A DNA stretch of 64,000 nucleotides from Escherichia coli (GTDB lineage: Bacteria; Pseudomonadota; Gammaproteobacteria; Enterobacterales; Enterobacteriaceae): NCBI RefSeq assembly GCF_046105845.1, contig NZ_CP151004.1. The stretch is one strand, 5' to 3'. A program made the position numbers and the translations under genes. Positions 22,929 through 27,457 of the stretch are shown in pieces (position 1 is the stretch's first letter; each line of letters opens with the position of its first letter). Below the pieces are notes generated by a model. It saw nothing but the letters and a program-made list of their open reading frames with translations, did no database searches and was not told where the DNA came from.

Positions 22929-24629
22929 TTACATCAGCTGACTTTCCTCACCCTCCGCGGAGCGAAAGCTAATACTCACTAACGTGCCGCCGCCGGAAGG
23001 TTGTGAAAAAGTCAGCGTCCCACCCAGCCGTTCCGCGCGCTCGCGCATGATATTCAGGCCATAATGACCTTCGGGTTCTTTCGGTTCACCGATGCCAATT
23101 CCGTTATCACGGATATAGACCGTGTGATTGCCGTCCGGCGCGGTGACGCAACTGACGGCGATTTCGCTGGCGTTGGCGTGCTTCATCGCATTCAGCACCG
23201 CTTCGCGAATAATTTGCAACAAATGCACCTGCATTTGCGCATCCAGCGCCAGGGTTGGCAGACGGCAGTCGAGGGTCAGTTTGGCGCTGGTTTGATTTTG
23301 TAACGTATCCAGCATTTCCCTCAACGCGGAGGGGAGATCTGCCTGCTGCAGCGTCAGGCGGAAAGTAGTCAACAGCTCGCGTAACTGCCGATAAGCATCA
23401 TTCAACGCTTGGGAAAAATCGGCCATGATACTTTGTGCGGTGGCGTTATCTTCCGGTATCGAACGCTTCAGTAACGTCAACTGGATACGTAAGTAAGAAA
23501 GTACCTGAGCCAGCGAGTCGTGCAATTCGCGGGCGATGGTCGCACGTTCTTCCATCAACAGTAACTGCTGAAAATGCTTCTGCGCCTGATTAAAGTACAA
23601 ACCGCGTCCCAGCATCGACGAAACGCTGTTAAGCAGCGGTTCTGATGATGAAACGTGACTATTTTGCCAGTGCAGTTCGCCGTAAACCGTCTCTTGCATT
23701 GTCACCGGTAAAATCTGCATCGGCAATTCCGGGTTTGGTTGCCCTTCGCTAATCCGCCAGTTTTCACCGACATTTAACTCCAGATATTCAGCCGCTTCGT
23801 TGTCGCGAACAATCTGCAAAATATGGCGGAAACAATGCACATCAATCTGGCTGGTGTTCAGTGCCTGCGAACACTGATACAACACCTCCAGGCGACGCTT
23901 GGCCTCGTGGAGGTCGCGGGTCTTTTCTTCTACTGACGCCTCCAGCGAACGGTACAATTTATGCAGCTCGCTCGACATCTGGTTAAAGGTTTTGGCAAGC
24001 AGGCCAAGCTCATTCGGCAGGCTGGTATCCAGCGGCGGCGAGTCGAACTGCCCGTGTTCAATACGCTGACTGGCGGTAACCAGCTGATTCAGCGGGGCAA
24101 CCACCTGATGGCGTATGCGGCGCAAAGTAAAAAAGACCAGCGTGAAAATACCGATGCCGCCAGCCAGGGAAATCGCCACCACCAGCAGCATTTTGCGTTC
24201 AGCGTAGTGCTGTAAAGCCAGTACGAACAGGTCTATCTGATTAACATAATTATTAATATTGGCCTGATACCACGGTAAATCGCCCTTGCTGAGCCGATTA
24301 TTCATCTCCAGCCAGTTGGCATTCAGATGCGCGTAGCGGGTTTTTACTGCCTCTGGCACATACCAGACGTTGAGATTGGTTAATACCGGTGAATGCAGTG
24401 CCTGCTGAAATAACTGCCGATGTGCATTGAGTTGTGGACTGCCACTTTGCAAGTCGTAGCCCAGGCGGTAACTCTGCATACGCAGCGATCCGGCAATATT
24501 GATAGCCTCAGCGTCGCGCAAACTGCTCGCCAGAGTTAGCAGAGCGATACCCGTGGAAAGAATCGACAGCAGCACAATGTAAAAAAAGGCCCGGGCCAGA
24601 CTGGCCGAGACGGGTCGTTTAACAATCAC
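22929..24629 (-). CDS. narQ: Nitrate/nitrite sensor histidine kinase NarQ
   Basis: 566 aa from GTG 24629 (IVKRPVSASLARAF...); H-box ELHDSLAQ; C-terminal ATPase domain. Confidence 0.95.
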   Translation of the reverse strand: MIVKRPVSASLARAFFYIVLLSILSTGIALLTLASSLRDAEAINIAGSLRMQSYRLGYDLQSGSPQLNAHRQLFQQALHSPVLTNLNVWYVPEAVKTRYAHLNANWLEMNNRLSKGDLPWYQANINNYVNQIDLFVLALQHYAERKMLLVVAISLAGGIGIFTLVFFTLRRIRHQVVAPLNQLVTASQRIEHGQFDSPPLDTSLPNELGLLAKTFNQMSSELHKLYRSLEASVEEKTRDLHEAKRRLEVLYQCSQALNTSQIDVHCFRHILQIVRDNEAAEYLELNVGENWRISEGQPNPELPMQILPVTMQETVYGELHWQNSHVSSSEPLLNSVSSMLGRGLYFNQAQKHFQQLLLMEERATIARELHDSLAQVLSYLRIQLTLLKRSIPEDNATAQSIMADFSQALNDAYRQLRELLTTFRLTLQQADLPSALREMLDTLQNQTSAKLTLDCRLPTLALDAQMQVHLLQIIREAVLNAMKHANASEIAVSCVTAPDGNHTVYIRDNGIGIGEPKEPEGHYGLNIMRERAERLGGTLTFSQPSGGGTLVSISFRSAEGEESQLM

Positions 24630-24834
24630 ACGCGTCTTCTCCACAAAAAATCATTAATGTTCCAGTTCGCTGAAACACAATTTAGTCAGTGATGGGATTA
24701 TTTGATCTGCCACAGTTTATAGCGAAATAGTTACTTATTCTGGGCACATGAACATTGCCGATTCCCCTGTAAGTCGGGTAATAACAACACTCATATAAAG
24801 AATAAGGTTTTTACAACCAAAAAAGAAGGTCGTT

Positions 24835-26814
24835 ATGAATCGTTTTATTATGGCCAACAGTCAGCAATGTCTGGGGTGTCATGCTTGTGAAATCGCCTGT
24901 GTCATGGCTCACAATGATGAACAACATGTCTTGAGCCAACACCATTTTCATCCCCGAATTACGGTTATCAAACATCAGCAGCAACGTAGTGCAGTGACCT
25001 GTCACCATTGCGAAGATGCGCCCTGCGCCCGTAGCTGCCCTAATGGCGCAATCAGCCACGTTGATGACAGCATTCAGGTCAATCAGCAAAAGTGTATTGG
25101 CTGTAAATCCTGCGTCGTGGCCTGTCCATTTGGTACGATGCAAATCGTCCTGACACCCGTCGCGGCGGGCAAAGTAAAAGCCACGGCGCATAAATGCGAC
25201 CTTTGTGCAGGGCGCGAAAACGGTCCTGCTTGTGTCGAGAATTGCCCAGCGGACGCACTGCAACTGGTCACTGACGCCGCACTCTCAGGCATGGCGAAAT
25301 CCCGCCGCTTGCGTACCGCACGTCAGGAACATCAACCGTGGCATGCCAGTACCGCGGCGCAAGAAATGCCGGTAATGAGTAAAGTCGAGCAAATGCAGGC
25401 AACGCCCGCGCGTGGCGAGCCGGACAAACTGGCGATTGAAGCGCGTAAAACCGGTTTTGATGAAATTTATCTGCCATTCCGTGCCGATCAGGCACAACGG
25501 GAAGCCTCGCGCTGCCTTAAGTGCGGCGAGCACAGCATTTGTGAATGGACCTGCCCGCTGCATAACCATATTCCGCAGTGGATTGAACTGGTGAAAGCCG
25601 GAAACATCGACGCCGCCGTCGAGCTTTCTCACCAGACCAACACCCTGCCGGAAATTACCGGACGCGTTTGTCCGCAAGACCGTTTGTGTGAAGGAGCCTG
25701 TACTATTCGCGATGAGCACGGTGCAGTAACTATCGGCAACATTGAACGCTACATTTCAGATCAGGCGTTGGCGAAAGGTTGGCGTCCTGACTTAAGCCAT
25801 GTCACCAAAGTGGACAAGCGGGTGGCGATTATCGGTGCAGGTCCGGCAGGGCTGGCCTGTGCGGATGTTCTGACCCGCAATGGCGTGGCGGTGACGGTGT
25901 ACGATCGCCATCCAGAAATTGGTGGCTTGCTCACTTTCGGCATTCCTTCTTTCAAACTGGATAAATCCCTGCTGGCACGCCGTCGGGAAATCTTCAGCGC
26001 GATGGGGATTCACTTCGAACTCAATTGTGAAGTGGGTAAAGATGTCTCTTTGGATTCGCTTTTGGAACAATACGACGCGGTCTTCGTTGGCGTAGGCACT
26101 TACCGTTCCATGAAAGCGGGTTTACCCAATGAAGATGCGCCGGGCGTTTATGACGCGCTGCCGTTCCTCATTGCCAACACTAAACAGGTGATGGGGCTCG
26201 AAGAGCTACCGGAAGAGCCGTTTATCAATACCGCCGGACTCAACGTCGTGGTACTGGGCGGCGGCGACACCGCGATGGACTGTGTGCGTACCGCGCTGCG
26301 CCACGGCGCGAGTAACGTCACCTGCGCTTATCGTCGTGATGAAGCTAACATGCCAGGCTCGAAGAAAGAGGTGAAGAACGCCCGCGAAGAGGGGGCCAAC
26401 TTTGAATTTAACGTCCAGCCGGTGGCGCTTGAGCTGAATGAGCAAGGTCACGTTTGCGGAATTCGTTTCCTGCGCACGCGTCTTGGCGAGCCGGATGCCC
26501 AGGGGCGTCAGCGTCCAGTGCCGGTGGAAGGCAGTGAATTTGTCATGCCAGCCGACGCGGTGATTATGGCGTTTGGCTTCAATCCACACGGGATGCCGTG
26601 GCTGGAGTCGCACGGTGTAACGGTAGACAAATGGGGCCGCATCATCGCGGATGTGGAAAGCCAGTACCGTTACCAGACCACGAATCCGAAAATCTTCGCC
26701 GGTGGTGACGCCGTGCGTGGTGCGGATCTGGTGGTTACCGCAATGGCAGAAGGACGTCATGCGGCACAGGGGATTATTGACTGGCTGGGGGTAAAATCAG
26801 TCAAATCTCACTGA
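24835..26814 (+). CDS. aegA: Putative oxidoreductase AegA (ferredoxin-like N-terminus plus GltD-like flavoprotein domain)
   Basis: 659 aa; N-terminal 4Fe-4S cysteine motifs; dinucleotide-binding AIIGAGPAGLACA and VVVLGGGDTAMDC. Confidence 0.94.
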   Translation: MNRFIMANSQQCLGCHACEIACVMAHNDEQHVLSQHHFHPRITVIKHQQQRSAVTCHHCEDAPCARSCPNGAISHVDDSIQVNQQKCIGCKSCVVACPFGTMQIVLTPVAAGKVKATAHKCDLCAGRENGPACVENCPADALQLVTDAALSGMAKSRRLRTARQEHQPWHASTAAQEMPVMSKVEQMQATPARGEPDKLAIEARKTGFDEIYLPFRADQAQREASRCLKCGEHSICEWTCPLHNHIPQWIELVKAGNIDAAVELSHQTNTLPEITGRVCPQDRLCEGACTIRDEHGAVTIGNIERYISDQALAKGWRPDLSHVTKVDKRVAIIGAGPAGLACADVLTRNGVAVTVYDRHPEIGGLLTFGIPSFKLDKSLLARRREIFSAMGIHFELNCEVGKDVSLDSLLEQYDAVFVGVGTYRSMKAGLPNEDAPGVYDALPFLIANTKQVMGLEELPEEPFINTAGLNVVVLGGGDTAMDCVRTALRHGASNVTCAYRRDEANMPGSKKEVKNAREEGANFEFNVQPVALELNEQGHVCGIRFLRTRLGEPDAQGRQRPVPVEGSEFVMPADAVIMAFGFNPHGMPWLESHGVTVDKWGRIIADVESQYRYQTTNPKIFAGGDAVRGADLVVTAMAEGRHAAQGIIDWLGVKSVKSH

Positions 26815-26881
26815 TAGCCTGCGCAGACAAACCCGGCTTCACAGCGTAAGATAATTGTTCATTTCGCGCTGTGGAGTCGGT

Positions 26882-27457
26882 ATGACGCAACAAATCACCC
26901 TCATTAAAGACAAAATTCTCTCCGATAACTATTTCACCCTGCACAACATTACTTACGATCTCACGCGCAAAGATGGCGAAGTTATCCGCCATAAACGTGA
27001 AGTTTACGATCGCGGTAATGGTGCAACGATCCTCCTGTACAACGCGAAGAAAAAGACCGTGGTTCTGATTCGTCAGTTCCGCGTCGCTACCTGGGTTAAT
27101 GGCAATGAAAGCGGGCAGCTGATTGAAACCTGCGCCGGGCTGCTGGATAACGACGAACCGGAAGTGTGTATTCGTAAAGAAGCGATTGAAGAGACGGGTT
27201 ATGAAGTTGGCGAAGTGCGCAAATTATTTGAACTGTATATGTCGCCAGGCGGTGTGACTGAGCTAATCCACTTCTTTATCGCCGAATACAGTGACAGCCA
27301 GCGCGCTAACGCCGGTGGTGGTGTCGAAGATGAAGATATTGAAGTGCTCGAGCTGCCGTTCAACAAGGCGCTGGAGATGATCAAAACCGGTGAGATACGT
27401 GACGGTAAGACGGTGTTATTGCTTAACTATTTGCAAATGTCACATTTAATGGACTGA
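26882..27457 (+). CDS. nudK: GDP-mannose pyrophosphatase NudK (Nudix hydrolase)
   Basis: 191 aa from ATG 26882; Nudix box [22 protein letters not shown]. Confidence 0.93.

Follow-up and report, generated by a model that had tools for sequence, protein, structure and literature searches.

A reading frame that joins ferredoxin-type cysteine motifs to a flavoprotein module, divergent from a nitrate sensor gene, raises two questions: which way the encoded protein carries electrons, and which upstream elements control its expression. We addressed both for the aegA locus in the window, that is, the whole stretch of 64,000 nucleotides of Escherichia coli DNA that was analysed (contig NZ_CP151004.1). 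The 1996 paper that named aegA (Cavicchioli) reportedly had anaerobic and nitrate control as its subject.

Identity and neighbourhood of aegA

The gene and its neighbours occupy the following positions:

22929..24629, minus strand: narQ, nitrate/nitrite sensor kinase and divergent neighbour, 566 aa from the RefSeq GTG
24630..24834, no strand: narQ-aegA spacer, 205 bp, one base (24677) off K-12
24835..26814, plus strand: aegA coding sequence, 659 aa plus stop, ATG start (ORF list, NF009408 and K-12 identity)
26882..27457, plus strand: nudK, 67 bp downstream of aegA (RefSeq annotation)

Positions 24835..26814 on the plus strand are the chromosomal E. coli aegA, an already named gene, and the 659-aa reading frame with its ATG start is present exactly as the earlier note on this DNA had given it. 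In a profile search, the protein matched the NCBIfam equivalog NF009408 with 1395.8 bits (cutoff 1003) over model positions 1–659 of 659; together with the Pfam matches to Fer4_20 (1e-37) and Pyr_redox_2 (4e-24), this score puts a chance match out of the question. Both NF009408 and the RefSeq protein carry the name 'formate-dependent uric acid utilization protein AegA', and the gene is annotated as aegA in RefSeq E. coli genomes. The K-12 protein (b2468, NP_416963.1) is of equal length and identical at 655 of the 659 residues, with the substitutions A148V, I235V, A352G and Q559R from window to K-12. The nucleotide divergence of aegA from K-12 is ordinary and strain-level. Among complete E. coli genomes, aegA was found in 5425 of 5426 (best match 99.1%). 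The finding of aegA as such was already known and adds no novelty.

The gene order acrD-narQ-aegA-nudK is shared with K-12 and the RefSeq strains. The divergent layout with a 205 bp spacer, as described in the earlier note, holds with the narQ start used in RefSeq and K-12 (GTG at 24629), which is supported by a GGAG approximately 10 nt before it; taking the longest ORF instead (GTG at 24644) shortens the spacer to 190 bp. Downstream, nudK directly follows aegA in 68 of 80 loci, no terminator-like site was found in the interval between the two genes, and nudK is possibly co-transcribed with aegA. An Rfam scan of the whole window returned zero matches.

Architecture of AegA and its proposed electron path

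Three domains were delimited within the coding sequence:

24835..25323, plus strand: N-terminal HycB/HydN-like ferredoxin domain, residues 1–163 (cysteine inventory, HydN model, HycB, Fer4 Pfam)
25447..25779, plus strand: GltD/DPD-type Fe-S domain (Fer4_20), residues 205–315 (PF14691 at 1.1e-37, alignment)
25819..26754, plus strand: FAD/NAD(P)H oxidoreductase domain, residues 329–640 (PF07992 at 3.8e-24, GxGxxG/A motifs)

The ferredoxin domain holds 16 cysteines in four motifs (residues 12–22, 56–68, 87–97 and 121–137), from which four [4Fe-4S] clusters are predicted. Residues 1–163 are matched by the HydN model NF007658 (4e-52) and residues 1–104 by the HycB structure 7z0s_B (2e-34); HycB3/HycB4 (7qv7) was matched as well, and a Pfam search placed Fer4 family domains in this N-terminal region. 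All five peptide motifs quoted in the earlier note were located in the AegA translation (5 of 5), namely CLGCHACEIAC at residue 12 (nt 24868–24900), CHHCEDAPC at residue 56 (25000–25026), CIGCKSCVVACP at residue 87 (25093–25128), AIIGAGPAGLACA at residue 331 (25825–25863) and VVVLGGGDTAMDC at residue 471 (26245–26283). Its three cysteine motifs were correct, but a fourth one, CDLCAGRENGPACVENC (residues 121–137), had been overlooked, as had seven GltD-type cysteines in the Fer4_20 domain. The latter (227, 230, 236, 240, 279, 285 and 289) form the patterns CxxCx5Cx3CP and Cx5Cx3C, align column for column with GltS beta (6s6s_G/2vdc_G) and NfnB (5jca_L), and predict two further [4Fe-4S] clusters. 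The FAD motif GAGPAG (residue 334) and the NAD(P)H motif GGGDTAMD (residue 475), followed by YRRD..NMPGS, are both kept in the GltD alignment. Judged from its sequence, AegA is an iron-sulfur flavoprotein that combines, in a single chain, a ferredoxin domain of the HycB/HydN type with a GltD/NfnB-type module. Pfam domains, the cysteine inventory and structure-sequence matches thus uphold the fusion proposed earlier, a domain arrangement that is textbook material for GltD-like proteins.

The substrate had been called poorly defined, which still describes the direct substrate but not the function, tied since 2019 to urate degradation that depends on formate and formate dehydrogenase H (FDH-H). 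Iwadate & Kato (2019), whom the RefSeq protein name follows, reportedly found that both aegA and its paralogue ygfT are needed for this formate- and FDH-H-dependent process. A 2021 review labels AegA 'of unknown function'. In two-hybrid assays, AegA was found to interact with HycB, HydN, YsaA and HyfA (PMC6004506). On the side of the urate pathway, YgfK with SsnA uses up NAD(P)H in vitro, and YgfM, the FAD subunit of XdhD, was modelled as an electron acceptor from NAD(P)H (PMC12507026).

From the sequence and the published genetics, we hypothesized that AegA might be an electron wire leading from formate oxidation to pyridine nucleotide. Electrons from FDH-H would enter the N-terminal cluster chain, probably via ferredoxin partners of the HycB/HydN/YsaA type, and would then pass over the two GltD-type clusters to FAD, where NAD(P)+ would be reduced; in a less likely branch, they would directly reduce a urate-pathway enzyme. 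The output would be the reducing power needed by XdhD-YgfM and YgfK in anaerobic urate degradation. If one asks what feeds electrons into the reductive urate pathway of E. coli, AegA and YgfT present themselves as candidates. Host urate levels are affected by gut bacterial urate degradation, which gives aegA its wider relevance.

Several published observations were counted against the electron-wire account. Little or no interaction between AegA and FdhF was seen in the two-hybrid assays, and deletion of aegA left FDH-H dye-linked activity and H2 production unchanged, FDH-H/FHL being unaffected (PMC6004506). In another study, induction of aegA by urate was modest, and its authors considered the gene not to be involved under their conditions. 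In addition, a 2025 reconstitution of the reductive urate pathway worked without AegA (PMC12507026).

Electrons could also flow in the opposite direction, as in GltD and DPD, from NAD(P)H to FAD and out over the Fe-S clusters. The acceptor might then be XdhD, a different molybdoenzyme, a hydrogenase or some ferredoxin-like protein, which would make AegA an NAD(P)H:acceptor reductase and not a formate-driven NAD(P)+ reductase. GltS beta and DPD, the closest solved relatives, run in this way, the 2021 review names this direction as one of two options, and several ferredoxin-like subunits interact with AegA (PMC6004506). However, the formate/FDH-H-dependent phenotype is simpler if electrons enter from formate, and XdhD-YgfM and YgfK already possess FAD/NAD(P)H entry sites of their own (PMC12507026); we regard the NAD(P)H-to-partner direction as unlikely, albeit worth serious consideration. 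The same 2021 review raised the possibility of flavin-based electron bifurcation or confurcation, whereby an NfnAB-like AegA would combine reduced ferredoxin-type donors with a second donor or acceptor at the FAD. The C-terminal module does match NfnB (5jca_L, 9e-93) as well as GltD-like domains of bifurcating complexes (8oh5_C, 9bov_A and 9n5u_A), yet the neighbours of aegA are narQ and nudK and no gene for an NfnA-like second flavin subunit lies beside it, so that such a mechanism appears quite improbable. Our preferred reading is that of a wire from formate to NAD(P)+.

The control region upstream of aegA

The features below were considered as candidate control elements:

23950..23965, plus strand: sigma-54 motif CGGTACAATTTATGCA inside narQ, toward aegA, 870 bp before the ATG
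24701..24717, plus strand: Block A, TTTGATCTGCCACAGTT, near-invariant across Enterobacteriaceae
24732..24738, plus strand: NarL-type heptamer TACTTAT, the sole TACYYMT match in the spacer, with about 0.09 expected per 205 bp
24740..24759, plus strand: Block B, CTGGGCAcATGAACATTGCC / CTGGGCAnATGAACATTGCC, inverted repeat GGCAA-N7-TTGCC, sigma-54-like with 2 extra bases between GG and GC
24755..24784, plus strand: inferred weak sigma-70 promoter, -35 TTGCCG (24755–24760), 18-bp spacer, -10 TAATAA (24779–24784)
24794..24809, plus strand: Block D, TATAAAGAATAAGGTT, noted for its conservation; alternative -10 (TATAAA) or conserved 5' leader
24824..24829, plus strand: Shine-Dalgarno-like AGAAGG, 5 nt before the ATG, with GAAGG kept in many genera
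24898..24913, no strand: CRP-type site TGTGTCATGGCTCACA inside aegA codons 22–27

Transcription of aegA would proceed from the weak sigma-70 promoter approximately 45 bp before the ATG, with a predicted start near 24791 that rests on the sequence and on the conserved bases GGTAAnnAC; a simple sigma-70 scan of the aegA strand between 24400 and 25000 called no promoter. Reg-Seq footprints, numbered from a presumed start at 24790, comprise a '-35' element under anaerobic growth at -34 to -21 (24756–24769) and a '-10' element at -13 to +6 (24777–24796) (PMC7567609). The same approach detected no regulator sites for aegA, and under its anaerobic condition nothing was flagged at the FNR-like site described below, even though this site lay within the mutated window (PMC7567609).

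The spacer was scanned with the consensus sequences of FNR, CRP, NarL/NarP 7-2-7, sigma-54, IHF and ArcA, and nothing exceeded the chance rate. The best NarL/NarP 7-2-7 match had 4 mismatches (chance level). The earlier note had seen neither a convincing FNR nor a convincing sigma-54 site, and this holds: sigma-54 had no match at up to 3 mismatches, and the sole FNR-like match, TTGATCTGCCACAG, deviates from TTGAT-N4-ATCAA at 3 positions. All three fall in its right half, and such a match is expected about as often by chance. This FNR-like sequence is unchanged between K-12 and the window, and a K-12 FNR ChIP-chip peak at aegA/narQ was assigned to exactly this site (PMC1802558). Its centre at 24708.5 lies about 83 bp upstream (-83) of the inferred start near 24791, class II sites being located around -41.5 and class I sites at -61.5 and further upstream. 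The TACTTAT heptamer is not conserved even inside Escherichia and is probably a chance match. Read on the opposite strand, the CRP-type TGTGTCATGGCTCACA equals TGTGAGCCATGACACA, a motif that CRP ChIP-seq listed for (aegA)/narQ in ETEC H10407 (PMC4287617), and an AtoC ChIP site, GTGATGGGATTATTTGATCT (24689–24708), overlaps Block A (PMC3118216).

In a footprint comparison of 77 Enterobacteriaceae loci, Block B was present in 72 and Blocks A and B together in 71, at an offset of 39–40 bp. Block A contains the FNR-like TTGATCTGCCACAG (24702–24715) with a perfect left and a degenerate right half-site; the 'wrong' half, CACAG, is conserved as well, for which FNR binding alone is no explanation. Both blocks are retained in genera without narQ, where acrD is the divergent neighbour. 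Because of this persistence, the conserved control region goes, by cross-genus comparison, with aegA and not with the narQ pairing. The divergent narQ neighbour described in the earlier note is correct, but the conserved elements are not carried by that pairing, and we infer that narQ is a lineage-specific neighbour rather than something the control region requires. Where Reg-Seq detected no regulators of aegA, the footprint supplies precisely placed promoter elements. Neither the window nor the K-12 urate cluster contained a further copy of Block B, and Block A/B motifs were absent from ygfT and the urate cluster, with no shared motif found. When Block B was compared by eye with the consensuses for PurR, NsrR, TorR, CytR and sigma-28, only partial resemblance was seen, and none is claimed.

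We propose that the distal part of this two-part element may be a degenerate FNR site occupied in vivo, which would fit anaerobic induction, while the proximal part, Block B, overlaps the -35 region and might be bound by some putative factor. As a tentative extension, about which we are more doubtful than confident, TTGATCTGCCACAG followed 39–40 bp further on by GGGCAnATGAACATTGCC could constitute an undescribed regulatory module of fixed geometry, retained throughout the divergence of the Enterobacteriaceae. Block B, which overlaps the -35 and resembles a sigma-54 element with the wrong spacing, would in that case serve as operator for a transcription factor tying aegA to formate/urate metabolism.

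Sigma-54 promoters need GG-N10-GC spacing, and two places at this locus could be read as such promoters. According to the first reading, aegA would be expressed mainly from the site inside narQ at 23950–23965 under YgeV or AtoC (urate/short-chain-acid enhancer-binding protein), in parallel to xdhA, ygeW, ygfK and ygfT, which have sigma-54 sites before them as well. The motif CGGTACAATTTATGCA matches the K-12 sigma-54 ChIP-seq site IA19 (PMC4591121), whose peak is oriented toward aegA; moreover, AtoC gave a ChIP signal within the spacer between aegA and narQ (PMC3118216), and ygeV has been implicated in urate degradation. Yet the occupancy score of IA19 is low (FAT 3), the urate induction of aegA is merely modest, and genera without narQ still have aegA together with Blocks A and B. 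The motif lies 870 bp ahead of the ATG, and just 12 of 50 loci retain its GG together with its GC, with variation within Escherichia and loss in other members of the genus. Due to this poor conservation, the motif is probably incidental; we rejected it as a conserved aegA promoter and consider it very improbable as the main one.

Block B itself could alternatively be the true sigma-54 promoter of aegA or, as part of a long 5' leader, fold into an RNA hairpin. With two extra spacer bases allowed, GGGCAC-N7-TTGCC differs from TGGCAC-N7-TTGCW by 2 mismatches, and the GGCAA/TTGCC arms are able to pair, with C-to-T changes that keep G-U pairs. Against the promoter, the spacing is N12 in all 72 matching loci, the canonical N5 form is unmatched in the spacer at up to 3 mismatches, and sigma-54 ChIP-seq reported no site there; against the hairpin, the 'loop' bases are conserved as much as the arms, with almost no two-sided pair changes. 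The Reg-Seq -35 furthermore lies inside or just after Block B, which argues against either role. We rejected Block B as a sigma-54 promoter for its invariant +2 spacing and the missing ChIP-seq peak, and as an RNA hairpin for its stem-like loop conservation and nearly absent covariation, and we give these two roles hardly any credence. The sigma-70 promoter with its two upstream blocks is the model we retain, and the overall account, combining the identity of aegA, the electron-wire mechanism and this promoter model, appears to us probable as a whole.

Relation to known systems

The AegA of K-12 is the product of the same gene in the same acrD-narQ-aegA-nudK context, behind a spacer one base apart. 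Residues 192–651 of AegA align end to end with GltD, the small (beta) subunit of glutamate synthase (6s6s_G, 2vdc_G; 7e-121); the two have in common the Fe-S cysteine motifs, the motifs for FAD and NADPH and also the YRR segment. However, AegA has an extra N-terminal ferredoxin domain with four motifs, and its neighbours are narQ and nudK. As a gltB-like gene for the large subunit is absent from the locus, AegA is not classed as a glutamate synthase, and this function was rejected. With NfnB, the large subunit of NfnI (5jca_L, 4ylf_B), AegA shares the GltD-like fold class and the cofactor motifs (9e-93), but it lacks an NfnA partner gene and again carries the additional ferredoxin domain. That domain, comprising the N-terminal 160 residues, has the four-motif, 16-cysteine pattern of HycB, HydN and YsaA (7z0s_B); these are free-standing small proteins, whereas the counterpart in AegA is fused to a flavoprotein. 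The same two-module architecture is found in the E. coli paralogue YgfT/UacF (NF009451), although AegA reaches only 871 bits with that model, under its cutoff of 1154. Genetically, YgfT/UacF reportedly belongs to the same formate-dependent urate degradation as AegA. Its gene differs from aegA in being a member of the urate cluster, alongside ygfS and uacT, in carrying a sigma-54 ChIP site of its own and in responding strongly to urate as inducer.

Identity and domain architecture of AegA

The earlier note had placed aegA and its upstream spacer at 24630-26814, and the ORF at 24835..26814 on the plus strand was confirmed, running from an ATG through 659 codons without interruption and carrying AGAAGG 5 bases 5' of the start codon. 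All five peptide strings quoted for it were recovered, at AegA residues 12, 56, 87, 331 and 471. The protein scored 1395.8 bits against the NCBIfam AegA equivalog model (cutoff 1003) and 871 bits against the model of its paralogue YgfT, under the cutoff of 1154 for that model, and it shared 655 of 659 residues with AegA of strain K-12. Of 5426 complete E. coli genomes, 5425 carried the surrounding 2.6-kb region (24400-27000); the top identity was 99.1%, most genomes were 95-99% identical to it, and the narQ / aegA / nudK annotation was constant across the E. coli matches. The gene is therefore aegA, located on an E. coli-like chromosome, and every feature tested here places its product in the AegA family. 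One E. coli match to the region comes from a record that is classified as a plasmid.

AegA comprises the following domains:

Domains of AegA (residue numbers)
Residues 1-163: ferredoxin domain with four Cys motifs; Fer4-family matches
Residues 205-315: GltD/DPD-type Fe-S domain with seven Cys; Fer4_20, 1e-37
Residues 329-640: flavoprotein domain with FAD and NAD(P)H motifs; Pyr_redox_2, 4e-24

The ferredoxin motifs listed previously were correct but incompletely counted, as three had been named and the Cys inventory gives four (C12/15/18/22, C56/59/64/68, C87/90/93/97 and C121/124/133/137); the seven cysteines of the GltD-type domain lie at positions 227, 230, 236, 240, 279, 285 and 289. The N-terminus resembles HycB, a subunit of FHL (7z0s_B, 2e-34), and the HydN model (4e-52), while residues 192-651 aligned end to end with both the glutamate synthase beta subunit (6s6s_G, 7e-121) and NfnB (5jca_L, 9e-93). 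The alignment retained the Fe-S Cys motifs, GAGPAG for FAD, and GGGDTAMD followed by YRRD..NMPGS for NAD(P)H. By homology, AegA is predicted to bind FAD and as many as six [4Fe-4S] clusters and to have a site for NAD(P)H. We rejected a glutamate synthase identity because the large-subunit partner is absent.

Electron flow through AegA

The fusion of these domains has been described in reviews, one of which (2021) still listed AegA as 'of unknown function' and offered two options: AegA may be a reductase linked to NAD(P)H, or it may use reduced ferredoxin in the manner of Nfn. Two-hybrid partners of AegA are AegA itself, HycB, HydN, YsaA and HyfA; an interaction with FdhF was barely seen, and deletion of aegA left FDH-H activity and H2 production unchanged (2018 HydN/YsaA study, PMC6004506). 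As later papers summarise Iwadate & Kato (2019), anaerobic urate degradation requires formate, FDH-H and either aegA or ygfT, a phenotype that the present aegA annotation reflects. A separate expression study found only modest induction of aegA by urate.

Most likely, we infer, AegA acts as an electron wire. Formate electrons would pass through FDH-H to ferredoxin-like partners and from these along the four N-terminal clusters of AegA; the two GltD-type clusters and FAD would follow, and NAD(P)+ would be reduced. The resulting NAD(P)H would supply both of the steps at which urate breakdown is reductive. The rival readings are that electrons run through AegA in the reverse direction or that AegA is an electron-bifurcating enzyme, the latter to be seen beside the end-to-end alignment with NfnB. 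The reductive urate pathway was reconstituted in 2025 from XdhD-YgfM, YgfK, SsnA, HyuA, YgeW, YgeY and YgeX: AegA was dispensable, NAD(P)H was used in the YgfK-SsnA assay, and YgfM, the FAD subunit of XdhD, was modelled as the electron acceptor from NAD(P)H (PMC12507026).

Two conserved blocks upstream of aegA

The interpretation of aegA in the earlier note was upheld, with a fourth ferredoxin motif, a urate-linked annotation and narQ-independent blocks as updates. The aegA finding as such is wholly established already. Anaerobic induction of about 11-fold and nitrate repression via Fnr and NarX/NarQ/NarL were reportedly found in the 1996 aegA work; the gene was named in that year, in a paper on its control by anaerobiosis and nitrate. 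The sole element absent from the literature examined is a two-block footprint and its independence of narQ.

Features of the aegA locus (window coordinates)
22929..24644, minus strand: longest narQ ORF, with in-frame GTGs at 24644 and 24629, 15 nt apart
24630..24834: narQ-aegA spacer
24701..24717: Block A
24740..24759: Block B
26882..27457, plus strand: nudK

The spacer length of 205 bp proposed earlier holds with the narQ GTG at 24629, the start used by RefSeq and in K-12; the GTG at 24644 would add MEKTR. The start at 24629 is favoured because GGAG sits about 10 nt upstream. A single base differs between this spacer and that of K-12.

We scanned one genome per species and compared 80 aegA loci, ranging from Escherichia to Mangrovibacter, by column conservation and pattern search; 77 were usable for block counts. 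Blocks A and B co-occurred in 71 of the 77. Block A consists of TTGATC and eight more bases (commonest form TTGATCTGCCACAG), and Block B follows the pattern G[GT]GCAnnnGnnn[AG]TTG[CT] (typical form GGGCAAATGAACATTGCC). The offset from A to B was 40 bp in 63 loci; in 8 others it was 39 bp. In 42 of the 72 loci with Block B, the block started 91-92 bp 5' of the ATG, and across all of them this distance ranged over 82-256 bp. Both blocks were retained in loci without narQ and therefore belong to aegA, rather than to narQ or the divergent layout. Neither recurs elsewhere in the 64-kb window, and the K-12 urate cluster (46 kb) contains no copy of either.

Block B forms an inverted repeat, GGCAA-N7-TTGCC. 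Since its centre is as conserved as its arms and two-sided pair changes are almost absent, the pattern argues for a putative site at which a protein binds the DNA, and against an RNA hairpin. A canonical sigma-54 promoter was excluded because the block, albeit -24/-12-like, has two extra bases in every case. A further inverted repeat, ATTTCAT-N5/6-ATGAAAT, lies directly 5' of the TTGATC block in most non-Escherichia genera, about 25 bp 5' of Block A and homologous to window positions of about 24675-24700 (Citrobacter, AATTTCATATTCGATGAAATAAATTGATC; degenerate Escherichia version, ATTTAGTCAGTGATGGGAT).

Consensus scans of the spacer agreed with the earlier failure to see a convincing FNR or sigma-54 site, and their FNR and NarL/NarP matches were near chance. 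The sole FNR-like match, TTGATCTGCCACAG at 24702-24715, had three mismatches, approximately the chance rate; the best NarL/NarP 7-2-7 match in the spacer had four, a single unpaired NarL heptamer was located at 24732-38, and the sigma-54 scan, allowing up to 3 mismatches, gave no match in the spacer. An Rfam scan of window 1-64000 returned nothing at or above the gathering score. In K-12, an FNR ChIP-chip peak at aegA/narQ was assigned exactly to TTGATCTGCCACAG (PMC1802558), and the spacer had no site in sigma-54 ChIP-seq (PMC4591121). An AtoC ChIP study showed binding at the overlapping GTGATGGGATTATTTGATCT (24689-24708; PMC3118216). Reg-Seq presumed, without mapping it, a start 45 bp 5' of the ATG (window 24790), placed aegA in the class with no regulator sites detected, and gave footprints labelled '-35' at -34..-21 (anaerobic growth) and '-10' at -13..+6 (PMC7567609). 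A -35 element TTGCCG (24755-60) and a -10 element TAATAA (24779-84) are compatible with these footprints. If this promoter is correct, the centre of Block A falls at about -83 and that of Block B at about -41. Possibly, though less probably than not, the two blocks together form an operator, so far undescribed, for a regulator that has yet to be assigned.

Within aegA, a near-perfect CRP-type palindrome, TGTGTCATGGCTCACA, occupies 24898-24913 (codons 22-27, in the region of the first ferredoxin motif); it is the reverse complement of a CRP ChIP-seq peak motif listed for (aegA)/narQ in ETEC H10407 (PMC4287617).

Neighbouring genes and sigma-54 sites

narQ was divergent from aegA in 51 of the 80 loci, with spacers of 151-717 bp, and was not called 5' of aegA in the other 29, among them Klebsiella, Raoultella, Kluyvera, Pseudocitrobacter and some Kosakonia. 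In both narQ-less loci examined an ORF of ~1040 aa replaced it as the divergent neighbour, the Kluyvera one being acrD (91% identity to AcrD of the window). Since some loci lack narQ at this position, the gene has been gained or lost there while Enterobacteriaceae diverged. On the other side, nudK followed aegA in 68 of 80 loci, no terminator-like structure was seen in the 67-bp same-strand gap (26815-26881), and co-transcription of the two genes is possible. The narQ leader contains a weakly conserved terminator-like hairpin at 24657-24678 (minus strand; 9 pairs including two G-U, a 4-nt loop, then a T-rich tract), about 30-50 nt 5' of the narQ GTG, which may be a chance occurrence.

A weak K-12 sigma-54 ChIP-seq site, IA19, lies within narQ and antisense to it (PMC4591121). 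Its motif, CGGTACAATTTATGCA, was found at 23950-23965 (+), oriented toward aegA and 870 bp away; no more than 12 of 50 loci kept both GG and GC, and the motif was lost or varied in other Escherichia, so this poor conservation marks it as probably incidental. The urate cluster of K-12 surrounds ygeV, which encodes a sigma-54 activator, and sigma-54 ChIP-seq sites were reported 5' of xdhA, ygeW, ygfK and, weakly, ygfT (PMC4591121), which suggests that the cluster is a sigma-54 regulon. With no equivalent conserved site of its own, aegA differs in this respect from the urate cluster.
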